Assembly (NCBI GenBank): GCA_964466625.1
Contig: CAYXQF010000003.1
Location: 1 to 51,915, forward strand
Length of the DNA stretch: 51,915 nt
Direction: 5' to 3'
Origin: an uncultured Lachnospiraceae bacterium
Lineage (GTDB): Bacteria > Bacillota > Clostridia > Oscillospirales > CAG-272
The notes under the pieces are model-generated. The model was not told the origin of the DNA, made no database searches, and saw only the letters and a program-made list of their open reading frames with translations. This document shows, piece by piece, positions 28,737-47,399 of this stretch (position 1 is the stretch's first letter; each line of letters starts with the position of its first letter). The translations under genes and the position numbers were made by a program.

Positions 28737-28798
28737 ATTTTAGCAAAAAAAACGTCAAATGACAAGTAGTCAAAGCCTTTCTTCACACTTCTTCACAA
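28737..28798 (-). promoter_or_regulatory. promoter with tandem TGTGAAGAA direct repeats (cassette 1)
   Basis: Minus strand: TTGTGAAGAAGTGTGAAGAA (28798-28779), 13 nt, TTGTCA (28765-28760), 17 nt, TAAAAT (28742-28737). Confidence 0.8.
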
Positions 28799-28813
28799 AT
28801 GGGAACAAATGCA

Positions 28814-28850
28814 AAAAAGAGCGATCACGACATGCGTGATCACTCTTTTT
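28814..28850 (-). terminator. rho-independent terminator after cassette 2
   Basis: aaaaagagcgatcacg-acat-gcgtgatcactcttttt, with one mismatch. Confidence 0.7.
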
Positions 28851-28860
28851 GACCGTATTT

Positions 28861-29877
28861 TTAATCCAAAATGTTTTTGTTTTTTTCATTTTGCACCGTG
28901 CGCACGGGAGCATCCTTTTCGCACGTTCTGTTCTTGTTTTTTCCGTGATTTGTGATATGCGCGCTCAGATCGAGTTGTCTTCCCGCAGGCTGTATCTCGG
29001 TGCGGTTCGCCTCTCTCCTCGCCTCATGACACATGCGAAAATCTCCGGAACCGATCTGTATGCGGCGATTATTCGCCACGTCGGGATAAGGATTCCCCAT
29101 CTTTTTTAAGCGTTTTTCATAGTCCTTCTGCATGGTGTCGCGAATCTTGTCAGCCTTTTTGTTGAGATCCTTTTGCGCTTTGTCTGCTTTTTTGAGCGCT
29201 TTTTGATCCGCTTTTGTGAATGCTCTCGGATCGTTCGCTCTCTTTTGGCGAAGAATCTTGCTTTGATGCTTGGCGTCGTAAAGATCCAGTCTTACTTTAT
29301 CCAGTTTCTCATTCTCTTTTTCCCAAAGCGCGGATTCCTTTTCGAGATACTCTGCCTTCGCGGCATCTTTCTCGCGCAAATCTTTGATATATGCCGCAAA
29401 AGCTTCCTTATCTGCGCGTTTGTTTTTCAGATAATTCATTTTATCGTAGTCAACGTTTTCAGAGTGGATCTCTTCCGTGTCGCGCTGAATTTCAGCGTCC
29501 AAGCGATACGCCATCGCGCCTTCCACATCTTTTACGGGATACCGGTCTTCGATCAAGTGATAGAACAAGTGCATATCGCGAATTTGATCATCGCTTGCCA
29601 TTCGATTCAGAGCATTCCCTATGTTTTCGCTCACGTCCAGATATTCTGACGGTTGTTTTTTCTCTTCCTTCGGTGCAAGAAGCGCGTTGGAAAGCATCTC
29701 AAAGTATACGCCGGGAACTTCTACCAAGTAACTCTGGAGTGTCTCTCTTTCTGATTTTATGTAATCCGTTCTCTTACTATTATGTGGATCGATCAATTTG
29801 ATATACCAGTTCGTGATCAGCGCGATCTCGCTCTCTGTCAATTTCTGGTCTATAACATCATTCATGGTTCTGGGCAT
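28861..29877 (-). CDS. hypothetical signal-less coiled-coil protein with GNPYP module (satellite cassette 2)
   Basis: ATG 29877 lies 8 nt after AGGAGGA; the TTG at 29883 is too close to the RBS. Lys/Glu-rich helical protein. C-terminal part reads KIRDTMQKDYEKRLKKMGNPYPDVANNRRIQIGSGDF. Confidence 0.75.
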   Translation of the reverse strand: MPRTMNDVIDQKLTESEIALITNWYIKLIDPHNSKRTDYIKSERETLQSYLVEVPGVYFEMLSNALLAPKEEKKQPSEYLDVSENIGNALNRMASDDQIRDMHLFYHLIEDRYPVKDVEGAMAYRLDAEIQRDTEEIHSENVDYDKMNYLKNKRADKEAFAAYIKDLREKDAAKAEYLEKESALWEKENEKLDKVRLDLYDAKHQSKILRQKRANDPRAFTKADQKALKKADKAQKDLNKKADKIRDTMQKDYEKRLKKMGNPYPDVANNRRIQIGSGDFRMCHEARREANRTEIQPAGRQLDLSAHITNHGKNKNRTCEKDAPVRTVQNEKNKNILD

Positions 29878-45141: not shown

Positions 45142-45144
45142 AGT

Positions 45145-47295
45145 TTATTCTCCAAAAACAAATTGGTTGCGTTTTGCGACATCATAAAATACCGCAGATT
45201 CGTCAAAATATCTTCCCGCAAGCTCGTCGGTCGCCATCTGACCCATCTGATAAAGCGGAACCTTATAGCTGGGAGTGAAGTTTGTTTTCAAAGGATTGTT
45301 ACCGAAGGTCACAACAATGGAGTTACCCGTGGAGGTCTTATTGTTGAGCTTCTGCAATTCGCTCGGATAAATGAGCGGTCGCGTCTGAATGCTCTGCGAA
45401 TAAGATGTATTTTCTTTGCCGGAAGAGGAGCTTCCCTGCGTAACGACAGTCACGTTGCCGCAAAGTTCGGAAAATTCTTTACAGGTTCCCATATCGTTGG
45501 AACCGATGAACATTTTCACGCCGCAGTTACCTTTTACGATATCTGCCACGGTGTCACCGTATACGTTATTGAGCTGTGTATAAGACTGCACCACCATATT
45601 GAACCAGATCTTACGGCTTCGGCCTACGGTGATCATCTTATCGAATTTTTCGATCTTCGGCATATTACCGAATTCATCGAGAATATAATATACGCTTCTG
45701 GGGAGCGAGAGATCTTCACGGGAGGAGGATACCTTGATCAGAGATTTATAAACGTTTGTCATAAAGATGGAAGCAAGACCGTGTCTGGTATCCTTTTCAT
45801 CAGGAATCTTAACGAAGATCGCTGTCGGTCTTTCCGCAAGGTCAGAGGTTTTGAAATCCGATTCCGAGGTCAAAGCGCAGATACCGGAGTCATTGAAAAG
45901 CGAAAGCTTTTCGAGAAGCACGCTCATGTAGGAGGAGCGCGTCTTGTCTGCCGCGTCGATAACCTGCTTTGCATTTGCCACAGCTTTACTGAGAGGATTT
46001 CTGCCGACGAAATAATTGCGGAGCTCTTTATAATCATCATCGGAATTCTGCAAGATCTTAGCCATATTGAAAAGATTGAATTTTTCCTTCGTCATGCCAA
46101 GTTCGGGGGTTTCGCTGTCTTCCAGCATCGCCAGAAGAACTGCCATCGTGATGGCACGCGCGCCTTTTTCCCACATCGGGTCATTCTGGTTTGCAACGGG
46201 AACAAGTACGCTGACAAGGTCATTCATGTCTTCATACATTTCGTCATATTTCTGCGCACGGAAGATTTTCACTTCCTGCAAAAGTCTGTCGAAATCCGCA
46301 AAGGCTCTGCCGTCAAACTCGTACCACGACTTGCCGTAACGAGAAGCGTCTTCTGTCAATTTCAGTCCGCTCTTTGTGACATCATCTTCTCTTTCAAAAG
46401 CCATTTTCGGCGCCCGGGCATATTCCTGATACGTATCCCAAAGAGGCTCCAAGGGATTCCAACGGTAGGAATGGTATGTATCACGAAGGTCAAGCACCTT
46501 TACGTCATAACCGCGTGCGGCGAGGAATTTACTGTGAAGGGAGAAAAGCTCGCCTTTCGGGTCGGTGATGAGCATGGAGGAGCCCGCGCTCGTCGCCGCG
46601 AGAAGCTGGATCATCGGGTTGATAAAGGTCGTCGTCTTACCGCTACCCGTGCTACCGATGATCAAGCTGTGACAAGGAGAAATGAACGTAAGGTTCAGAT
46701 CCTTTTTGCCGTCAAAGATCGCACGCATCGGAACACCGTCTTTTTTGAGTGTCGAAAGCTGCGAATATTTGTGAGAATTAAAAAATTTATCTCTTTCCGC
46801 GTCGGTCATCCAACGGGAATTTTCAAGATTTGCATCGATCTGTCCCAGTTTACCCTTGCCTCGGATACCGCGTCTTGCAAGACCAAGCTCGCCGCGGTTG
46901 ATAAAGCCATAATACAGCGCATGGAACAAAACGAAGAAAACGAGGACCGTTGCCCAATAAGCGCCGTCTATAAAAAACGATGCAAAGATGCGTCGCCAGT
47001 CCATATCGGAAAGATCGAACTGCGAAACGCGAAGCGCGTGGAACACCAATCCCAAAAACGCGGAGATGAAAATTCCCCAGAAGCCGTTGAAAAGGATCGT
47101 GCGCATCATGCCGCTCGCCTTGGAAATGCCCCAAAGGGAAATCCTTCCCAGCGTGATCAAGGCAAACAGCACAGGTGCCGTATATATAAACGCCATCACA
47201 TCAAACGTGCTATAAACAAGAGTAACACCGAGATACGCCGCGAGAACCGATATTGCGAGGGAGATCAGGAGTGCTTTCATCAATTTCATAAACAA
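45145..47295 (-). CDS. VirD4/TraG-family type IV coupling protein (T4CP)
   Basis: N-terminal TM helices, Walker A LIIGSTGSGKTTTFINP, Walker B VYYILDEFGNMPKI. The stop lies 3 nt before the next ATG. The start is TTG 47295 or ATG 47289. Confidence 0.85.
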   Translation of the reverse strand: MFMKLMKALLISLAISVLAAYLGVTLVYSTFDVMAFIYTAPVLFALITLGRISLWGISKASGMMRTILFNGFWGIFISAFLGLVFHALRVSQFDLSDMDWRRIFASFFIDGAYWATVLVFFVLFHALYYGFINRGELGLARRGIRGKGKLGQIDANLENSRWMTDAERDKFFNSHKYSQLSTLKKDGVPMRAIFDGKKDLNLTFISPCHSLIIGSTGSGKTTTFINPMIQLLAATSAGSSMLITDPKGELFSLHSKFLAARGYDVKVLDLRDTYHSYRWNPLEPLWDTYQEYARAPKMAFEREDDVTKSGLKLTEDASRYGKSWYEFDGRAFADFDRLLQEVKIFRAQKYDEMYEDMNDLVSVLVPVANQNDPMWEKGARAITMAVLLAMLEDSETPELGMTKEKFNLFNMAKILQNSDDDYKELRNYFVGRNPLSKAVANAKQVIDAADKTRSSYMSVLLEKLSLFNDSGICALTSESDFKTSDLAERPTAIFVKIPDEKDTRHGLASIFMTNVYKSLIKVSSSREDLSLPRSVYYILDEFGNMPKIEKFDKMITVGRSRKIWFNMVVQSYTQLNNVYGDTVADIVKGNCGVKMFIGSNDMGTCKEFSELCGNVTVVTQGSSSSGKENTSYSQSIQTRPLIYPSELQKLNNKTSTGNSIVVTFGNNPLKTNFTPSYKVPLYQMGQMATDELAGRYFDESAVFYDVAKRNQFVFGE

Positions 47296-47337
47296 TCATA
47301 TCCTTTCTAAAAAACGCCGCGTAACTTTTCTGTTTAT

Positions 47338-47399
47338 ATTTTACTCCATTCCGCCGCGACTTTCAATAGAATCACCACATTCTTCACAAACATTCACAA
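47338..47399 (-). promoter_or_regulatory. promoter of the T4SS-like operon with the same direct-repeat operator
   Basis: Minus strand: TTGTGAATGTTTGTGAAGAA (47399-47380), 13 nt, TTGAAA (47366-47361), 17 nt, TAAAAT (47343-47338). Confidence 0.75.

Follow-up and report, generated by a model that had tools for sequence, protein, structure and literature searches.

A tandem box ahead of four promoters points to a putative OmpR-family regulon at a type IV secretion locus of uncultured gut Clostridia

In a 51.9-kb stretch of contig CAYXQF010000003.1 from an uncultured gut Clostridia bacterium (the whole stretch is hereafter called the window), four minus-strand promoters carry the same tandem box, a pair of TGTGAAGAA-type decamers in 10-bp phase; the -35 hexamer begins after a 13-nt gap, and a 17-nt spacer separates it from the -10 hexamer. 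Site 4 precedes a six-gene operon for a type IV secretion system (T4SS), and sites 1 to 3 precede three units of fast-evolving satellite genes. The box is, judging from its sequence and conservation, almost certainly a selected cis-regulatory element. We propose that it serves as operator for an OmpR/PhoB-type response regulator (RR), whose gene, together with that of its cognate histidine kinase (HK), lies directly upstream of site 4; this pair is the most informative context of the four promoters and was missed by the original prediction of them. What the sequences show directly is a conserved element of fixed geometry that is linked to the two-component system and whose motif matches the recognition-helix class of the regulator. 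The full model, in which the regulator binds the tandem boxes and activates all four units, is one that we consider reasonably probable.

Four promoters share one box and one geometry

The core of the box, TGTGAA-N4-TGTGAA, occurs four times in the window, always on the minus strand and never outside the four promoter sites (Table 1), and none of 100 dinucleotide-preserving shuffles reached four copies (mean 0.01, maximum 1). The best other match in the window has one mismatch and lies within a gene, with no promoter behind it. The repeats, 13-nt gaps, hexamers and 17-nt spacers that the original prediction tabulated all read exactly as listed, although the upstream decamer of site 4 (TTGTGAATGT) deviates from the TGTGAAGAA type, and the flanks described as common to sites 1 and 2 (catTTGTG... 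and TACTTGTCATTT) are present. The accompanying description of the repeats as abutting the -35 has to be corrected, because they stop 13 nt upstream of it.

When the gap was left free to vary between 3 and 44 nt, the best promoter for every exact tandem in the window was the one with a 13-nt gap and a 17-nt spacer, and an independent promoter scan of 24-38 kb placed three of the four sites within its top five, each with a TG extended -10. All four sites have the recognisable -35 and -10 hexamers and the spacer of about 17 nt expected of a sigma-70/SigA promoter; with a spacer of exactly 17 nt in each case, their core promoters match the consensus at 9-11 of 12 positions (scores of 9.5-11.5, on a scale out of 12 with a bonus of 0.5 for a 17-nt spacer). 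The box itself precedes the -35 and keeps to one face of the helix, as an activator site does in class-I promoters. The tandems are exclusively intergenic, oriented with the downstream genes and placed after terminators, with a strong intrinsic-terminator hairpin and its U-run immediately upstream of each site (dG -18 to -24 kcal/mol, z -4.7 to -6.0), and the locus is thus divided into four insulated transcription units. Rfam gave no match within 24-50 kb.

Two further features accompany these promoters. A weakly conserved CAGAA/AGAA lies around the expected start, about 5-12 nt past the -10 (for example at 47328-47334 and 32486-32492), and this signal, which recurs across sites and loci, could be a preferred initiation context or an extra element. 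An inverted repeat, GAGGG(G/T)A...TTTTCCTC, spans the -35 of sites 2 and 3 (32513-32533 and 30000-30022, minus strand); as a second operator this GAGGG...CCTC repeat was rejected, since the orthologous promoters of two related loci (L110 and L111) do not conserve it.

The box is conserved while its surroundings diverge

VirB4-anchored reference loci, numbered here with the other related sequences from L001 onwards, place the source of the window among gut metagenome-assembled genomes of Eubacteriales / Candidatus Scatosoma, and the core T4SS module is widespread in Bacillota and conserved in L002-L021. We also fetched the genomic contexts of ten regulator homologues that form a graded series of identity. 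Among 14 related metagenomic loci with regulators 56-95% identical, the RR-HK pair invariably adjoins the T4SS. At 79-95% identity it immediately precedes the T4SS genes, and the outer neighbours are completely different; at 56-62% identity the pair still adjoins the T4SS, with divergent transcription; and at 52% or less the T4SS is absent and the kinase is of a different, longer type. Every T4SS-linked locus has the tandem box, with one to four sites per fetched stretch, ahead of VirD4, pilin and satellite genes, and the orthologous VirD4 promoters in L081-L091 retain both the box and its geometry. Site 3 is conserved in L001, L110 and L111, and site 2 in L001; in L002-L007 the 10-kb flank ends inside the giant gene, short of the VirD4 promoter, and these loci therefore have no bearing on site 4.

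Across the window and the related loci, a promoter of this geometry follows all 27 exact tandems, 25 of them with a 13-nt gap and two with a 23-nt gap. Both of the latter belong to L092, whose regulator is 56% identical, and their gap of 13 + 10 nt preserves the helical phase. The exact tandem is absent from 1.33 Mb of T4SS loci of other lineages (79 VirB4-anchored loci, most from lineages that lack this regulator) and from 60 kb around paralogous regulators. In an alignment of 16 non-redundant sites (regulators 61-95% identical), information is high only at aT-TTGTGAAg...TGTGAAGAA, at TTG..A and at TA.AAT, and lower at a CAGAA close to the expected start; the gap of 13 nt and the spacer of 17 nt are kept in length and not in sequence. 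Orthologous loci thus keep the box in its exact geometry as the sequence around it diverges.

Conservation of this kind has to be distinguished from mere common descent, in which a single duplicated promoter cassette without regulatory role would have spread together with the satellite genes. Sites 1 and 2 do have common flanks beyond the functional elements, and the satellite genes are paralogues that have been acquired and lost as cassettes. Between sites and loci, however, the gap, spacer and flanks are near random whereas the repeats, the -35, the -10 and both distances are fixed; the promoter class of site 4 serves VirD4, which is not a paralogue, and the box is kept down to 56% regulator identity; and the change from 13 to 23 nt preserves the phase. 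None of these features is predicted by neutral descent. We regard neutral spread as very improbable, and retain the box as a selected regulatory element.

The distribution of the box bears on the extent of the regulon. Downstream of VirB4, L110 has four box sites, each ahead of a gene starting MP[KR]. On the 13-kb contig L111, a gene like p786 (the site-3 satellite gene) stands beside Fe-ADH and sugar-metabolism genes (9904, plus strand), at a distance from any T4SS gene, and keeps both a VirB4-type 3' terminator and a tandem-box promoter. The original prediction of a small regulon, consisting of the T4SS operon and three satellite units, thus stands as to the four boxed units, but the regulon is not strictly confined to the island; retention of the box by a detached member is expected, because the regulator would act in trans. 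The flanks of L081-L092 set the RR-HK-T4SS module (regulators 79-95% identical) in wholly different chromosomal neighbourhoods, and the locus therefore appears to move or to be reshuffled.

A metagenome-wide scan for the full geometry returned 15 matches, none of them near T4SS-locus genes, and added no members to the regulon. Eight of the 15 (L095-L098, L103 and L106-L108, on TARA and JGI contigs) form an unrelated marine family with a GC content of about 0.43, in which the promoter reads aTGTGAAGAATTGTGAAGAA, 13 nt, TTGACT, 17 nt, TAcAAT and so repeats both box and geometry. Small open reading frames (ORFs), Hsp20 and an AAA_33/zeta-toxin-like kinase surround it and give it a phage-like look, and neither T4SS genes nor a regulator homologue lie nearby on these contigs. 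The marine box could reflect either convergence or a related regulator specificity.

A regulator and kinase pair as the candidate binder

The regulator upstream of site 4 has both domains of its family: its receiver domain matches Response_reg at 57.9 bits (cutoff 30.2), and its winged helix matches PF00486 at 59.9 bits (cutoff 26.2) over profile positions 1-77 of 77. The phospho-acceptor site and its acidic pocket are intact, residues E12, D13, D14, D55, S81 and K103 being invariant or nearly so in ten aligned homologues, and PDB sequence matches include DrrD, MtrA, KdpE, BasR and others (best E = 5e-21). Seventy-two NCBIfam equivalog families match, all below their cutoffs (the best, PhoB, at 107 bits against 296), so that the protein is not an orthologue of PhoB, OmpR, VanR, KdpE or any other named member. 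It appears instead to represent an uncharacterised subfamily of the OmpR family, with a newly defined putative operator and regulon.

The kinase and regulator genes overlap by 4 nt. From its hydropathy profile the kinase is predicted to have about 10 transmembrane (TM) helices within residues 1-225 and to lack any large extracytoplasmic domain. Its TM half (residues 1-230) has diverged faster than its catalytic half (residues 231-476), with identities of 73% against 93% in L081 and 67% against 86% in L088, in close relatives whose regulators are 79-95% identical, which suggests that the input signal is diversifying. The regulator gene's own promoter resembles an extended -10 promoter (TGaTATAAT) and has no tandem box. 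A lone half-site-like TTGTGAAAGAA precedes this -10 by about 75 nt but lacks the standard geometry, and autoregulation through the box is thus not apparent.

Regulators of the OmpR/PhoB family form head-to-tail tandem dimers on direct repeats (PMC11825685, PMC4832192), and a tandem in 10-bp phase suits this mode of binding. The recognition helix of the regulator is LNTTTIRKHISSMRRKL. Homologues P0001-P0021, although their overall identity drops as low as about 55%, hardly vary in the helix NTTTIRKHISSMRRKL: four of them have isolated changes at the two positions preceding IRK. Wherever the box is TGTGAAG, the recognition helix is invariant. A paralogous helix class, QTTTIRRHLSTLRQKL, is that of the regulators in L094 and L112, which share only 60% identity, and beside these two regulators lie TTGTTACGaa-TTGTTACGgt tandems, also in 10-bp phase, 23 or 13 nt upstream of a -35/-10 pair. 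The same helix class thus stands beside the same TGTTACG tandems in two independent loci, which indicates that the motif tracks the helix class, and the tandem architecture appears to be common to the regulator subfamily. On the strength of this match, and of the linkage, the adjacent OmpR/PhoB-type regulator is likely to be the protein that binds the box.

The loci of the paralogues have features of their own. In L094 (~9931) and L112 (~7692), both on the minus strand, the TTGTTACGAA-TTGTTACGGT tandems lie in a shared intergenic region, and the QTTTIRRHLSTLRQKL-class regulators are paired with kinases of about 680 aa and are divergent from clusters of uncharacterised proteins. In L093 (9840-9930, plus strand), three copies of CGTCTTCATTAG about 23 bp apart, with short GC hairpins between them, precede a paralogous regulator gene.

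The boxes may be real and yet be bound by another protein, for which Spo0A, Rex and the LytTR-type response regulator at the end of the locus are the candidates. The Spo0A box (TGTCGAA, the 0A box) contains a CG, which the tandem box lacks. The 7-bp half-site of Rex, TTGTGAA, is exactly that of the box, and the Rex operator TTGTGAAnnnnTTCACAA has the same four bases between its half-sites (PMC4162614, PMC2883068), but it is an inverted repeat that a symmetric dimer binds as a repressor at metabolic genes, whereas here direct repeats stand at a fixed upstream distance; the Rex consensus TTGTGAA-N4-TTCACAA (PMC4162614) is not matched, the second half-site being a direct TGTGAA at four of four sites. 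The LytTR regulator, which could be a rival binder or a downstream regulatory tier, lies at the end of the locus in L110 as well as in the window (the stretches fetched for L081-L092 do not reach that end), and LytTR proteins also bind direct repeats upstream of promoters, near -60 at several co-regulated Gram-positive promoters in the case of AgrA (PMC4227749). LytTR repeats, however, are 9 bp long and 12 bp apart, or about 21 bp centre to centre (PMC2766830), against 10 bp centre to centre here, and AgrA-dependent promoters have over-long spacers of 18-20 nt (PMC4227749) rather than the optimal 17 nt. Moreover, wherever its context was examined, the box goes together with the OmpR-type regulator and the T4SS, and a different helix class of that regulator comes with a different motif. 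Binding by one of these other proteins is accordingly unlikely, and the OmpR-type regulator remains our candidate. A comparison with a Bacillus ResD box containing TTGTGAA was dropped, the papers with both terms giving either the Rex inverted repeat or primers; a literature search with the box 9-mer returned only primers and unrelated sequences.

Proposed mechanism and its strength

We propose that a signal would be sensed in the membrane by the 10-TM kinase, which would phosphorylate Asp55 of the regulator. The phosphorylated regulator would then dimerise, its two winged-helix domains binding the half-sites head-to-tail, and would occupy the TGTGAAGAA repeats at about -68 to -49 from the likely start (centre about -58.5), where the start is reckoned 6-8 nt past the -10; in L092 the repeats lie one turn further upstream. 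From there the dimer would help RNA polymerase with its housekeeping sigma factor on the -35/17/-10 promoter, most likely through the C-terminal domain of the alpha subunit. One signal would thereby switch on the six-gene T4SS operon together with the three units of fast-evolving proteins. Both the dependence on phosphorylation and the alpha contact we infer. The repeats lie upstream of the core footprint of the polymerase and are phase-locked to the promoter, which suggests class-I-like activation, and their distance of 13 nt from the -35, rather than a position against it, argues for a class-I-like over a pho-box-like arrangement. The original prediction had taken these to be activator-dependent promoters, a view with which every computational test that was run agrees, while activation itself we infer.

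The regulator could also bind the box and act in the opposite sense, occupying the region used by the alpha subunit or looping the DNA, so that the signal would relieve silencing. Core promoters so near consensus, three of them with a TG extended -10, are unusual for strictly activator-dependent promoters, and OmpR/PhoB-family members repress as well as activate (PMC11825685). Yet a site that stops 13 nt (23 nt in L092) short of the -35 stays clear of the polymerase footprint, the conservation of phase between 13 and 23 nt is the signature of a face-specific contact with polymerase that is typical of activation, and the 16-site alignment reveals no conserved second operator overlapping the -35 or -10. 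Repression or anti-activation is thus improbable, and, given binding, activation by the regulator is very likely.

Several points weigh against the model of a regulator that binds and activates. No canonical box lies upstream of the regulator gene in the window, and the autoregulation that is common in such systems is therefore not seen. With reasonably good -35 and -10 elements, and a TG extended -10 at three sites, the promoters may plausibly have basal activity without an activator, and their dependence on one is not evident from the sequence. The match between helix and motif is based on two motif classes only, the locus also conserves a second regulator, of the LytTR type, and the related sequences are all metagenomic. 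Finally, most characterised OmpR-family sites have an 11-bp spacing and not one of 10 bp.

Genes of the locus

All genes of the locus are on the minus strand (Table 1). The window looks chromosomal, with genes for an FGGY kinase, DegV, FakA, glycosidases and transporters. The operon downstream of site 4, whose adjacent genes overlap or stand at most 57 nt apart, encodes VirD4, a T4SS pilin, a VirB6-like protein and VirB4, which upholds the description of it as T4SS-like; the matches are to Pfam PF19044/DUF87, PF02534/PF12696 and PF18895 and to NCBIfam NF045848/NF045889. No relaxase, integrase or recombinase was matched by Pfam or NCBIfam in 24.5-49.6 kb or in the rest of the window, and the locus thus lacks the combination of a T4SS with a relaxase and an integrase or recombinase that marks a conjugative element; a relaxase in the locus may be too divergent for these profiles to recognise.

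The end of the locus is itself conserved. The AIM24-family gene, a small membrane protein gene and the LytTR regulator form a common tail in the window (24519-27539) and in L110 (18768-20902), where an AIM24 gene and a 175-aa gene make up the same tail and the LytTR regulator, in the same position, is preceded by a terminator and a promoter of its own that lacks the tandem box.

Table 1. Features of the locus in the window
Feature	Position	Strand	Description
Response regulator	48879-49553	minus	OmpR/PhoB family, 224 aa, proposed box binder; Pfam Response_reg and Trans_reg_C above cutoff
Histidine kinase	47452-48882	minus	cognate kinase, 476 aa; Pfam HATPase_c; H-box FLSHDLRKP
Intrinsic terminator upstream of site 4	47412-47444	minus	after kinase gene; -18 kcal/mol, z -5.98, then U-run
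Site 4	47338-47399	minus	T4SS operon promoter; TTGTGAATGT TTGTGAAGAA 47399-47380, 13 nt, TTGAAA 47366-47361, 17 nt, TAAAAT 47343-47338
T4SS operon	32600-47289	minus	six genes, site 4-driven; Pfam and NCBIfam matches
VirD4 coupling protein	45145-47289	minus	T4SS operon; PF02534/PF12696
Giant protein	37855-45141	minus	T4SS operon; 2428 aa; hydrophobic segments at both termini
T4SS pilin	37495-37797	minus	T4SS operon; VirB2-like, PF18895
Lipoprotein	36830-37495	minus	T4SS operon; 221 aa
VirB6-like protein	35248-36807	minus	T4SS operon; matches Mycoplasma integrative and conjugative element (ICE) families (NCBIfam)
VirB4 ATPase	32600-35251	minus	T4SS operon; PF19044/DUF87
Intrinsic terminator upstream of site 3	32562-32591	minus	after VirB4; -19.1 kcal/mol, z -4.76
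Site 3	32498-32559	minus	GTGTGAAGAA ATGTGAAGAA 32559-32540, 13 nt, TTGAGA 32526-32521, 17 nt, TGt-TATAAT 32503-32498
p786	30101-32461	minus	satellite gene, site 3-driven; 786 aa, charged, starts MPKIGTNY
Intrinsic terminator upstream of site 2	30069-30094	minus	-24.2 kcal/mol, z -4.72
Site 2	29988-30049	minus	TTGTGAAGAA GTGTGAAGAA 30049-30030, 13 nt, TTGTCA 30016-30011, 17 nt, TGc-TACAAT 29993-29988
Site-2 unit	28861-29949	minus	18-codon remnant ORF (29949-29893), then p340 (28861-29877, starts MPRTMNDV)
Intrinsic terminator upstream of site 1	28814-28850	minus	-23.5 kcal/mol, z -5.67
Site 1	28737-28798	minus	TTGTGAAGAA GTGTGAAGAA 28798-28779, 13 nt, TTGTCA 28765-28760, 17 nt, TGc-TAAAAT 28742-28737
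Site-1 unit	25375-28696	minus	p378, AIM24-family, membrane protein, probable lipoprotein; gene gaps at most 25 nt
p378	27560-28696	minus	first gene of site-1 unit; 26-aa tandem repeats
AIM24-family protein	26817-27539	minus	site-1 unit; Pfam AIM24
Membrane protein	26275-26820	minus	site-1 unit; 181 aa; hydropathy
Probable lipoprotein	25375-26250	minus	site-1 unit; 291 aa
LytTR-type response regulator	24519-25256	minus	orphan; Pfam Response_reg and LytTR; closes locus

Satellite proteins

The satellite proteins are charged and, in a hydropathy scan that did not specifically predict signal peptides, have no TM-like segment. Together with L001_423, L084_453 and L088_406, p786 and p340 contain a common module, roughly 110 aa long and marked by a GNP[FY]P motif, and their N-termini typically read MP[KRN]; through this module p340 is a distant paralogue of p786. 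In p378, 78-bp (26-aa) tandem repeats of the unit RDYEDAQAIQKQNLDTLVKALQTQGA occupy positions 27741-27912. Searches of Pfam, NCBIfam, PHROGs and PDB sequences and two large homologue searches were uninformative about the satellites: p786 has only four homologues in 5.8 billion proteins, and the large-database matches of p340 are two, itself and the copy in L001. Among the VirB4-anchored loci, both occur only in L001, a contig of the same species, where they are 80-83% identical (83% for p786) against 99% for VirB4.

Relative to L001, a 423-aa gene (5195-6466 in L001) has been deleted from the site-2 unit of the window, leaving an 18-codon fusion remnant before p340, and satellite content therefore varies within a species. 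This comparison suggests that satellite genes come and go as cassettes. It is an attractive idea, from their co-regulation and rapid diversification, that the satellites may be substrates of the T4SS. A wider reading, in which the locus would be a chromosomally resident, signal-induced and protein-exporting T4SS of a gut commensal rather than a conjugation machine, with the satellites as its substrates or effectors, is a speculative one that we hold to be rather doubtful. If it were true, the inducing signals would be strain-specific and set by the fast-diverging 10-TM sensor, the promoter with its tandem box could be used as a sequence tag for new effectors, and the Erysipelotrichaceae loci with tandem boxes of their own (TGTTGCAC), described below, would be a parallel case.

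Comparison with known systems

By analogy, the closest functional counterpart is the VirA/VirG vir-box regulon of Agrobacterium, in which a two-component system is likewise encoded with a T4SS and one box precedes several T4SS-associated units; phosphorylated VirG binds a short conserved box ahead of the T4SS operon and of accessory and substrate units and co-induces them (PMC4086400). The likeness does not extend to sequence. The vir box is a 12-bp element of another sequence, whereas the box here is a 10-bp-phased TGTGAAGAA tandem, and the regulator is related to VirG at the family level only, neither the vir-box sequence nor a VirG orthologue being present. VirG moreover induces its own expression (PMC4086400), while the regulator gene here has no box in front of it. 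The host in this case belongs to the Gram-positive gut Clostridia, the VirB6-like protein matches Mycoplasma ICE families, and, in contrast to the vir system, no relaxase or T-DNA-like cargo is evident.

The arrangement also resembles OmpR/PhoB operators, in which a winged-helix regulator binds tandem repeats about one turn apart upstream of a housekeeping-sigma promoter (PMC11825685, PMC4832192), although here the binding is predicted. In pho boxes and proximal PhoP sites the repeats overlap or replace the -35 (class II), whereas here a TTGnnA -35 is retained, with 13 or 23 nt between it and the end of the repeats. The PhoP period in M. tuberculosis is 11 bp, or 7 + 4 (PMC4832192), against 10 bp here.

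A different box is found in Erysipelotrichaceae T4SS loci of the same family (L012, L013 and L015, plus strand). It reads TGT[TG]GCAC-N2-3-TGT[TG]GCA, has an 11-bp period, lies about 8 nt upstream of the -10 and occurs three to five times per locus (in L012 at 8519, 12763, 15120, 18602 and 21703, plus strand), ahead of the VirB6-like gene and of satellites that mostly start 'MP...' and have no Pfam domains. These boxes point to a parallel multi-promoter regulon.

Implications

The regulation of Gram-positive T4SSs has been described mainly through pheromone, Rap/Phr, ImmR-type and similar circuits, and in the literature that we searched no dedicated OmpR-type two-component system with a vir-box-like operator is described for a Gram-positive T4SS. 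The regulatory logic is itself textbook; what the locus offers is an unusually clean and directly testable prediction. The pairing of helix class with motif (TGTGAAG versus TGTTACG) amounts to a small natural experiment on specificity in the OmpR family. Since 1.33 Mb of unrelated T4SS loci contain no match to it, the box has the specificity needed for a regulon tag, and it already picks out an orphan, rapidly diversifying protein family and its detached member in L111; if the satellites are T4SS substrates, the promoter box would be a practical route to the discovery of others. For an uncultured lineage of gut Clostridia (relatives of Eubacteriales / Candidatus Scatosoma), the kinase, the regulator, the 20-bp box and the promoter geometry together provide a testable model of how a T4SS would be controlled.

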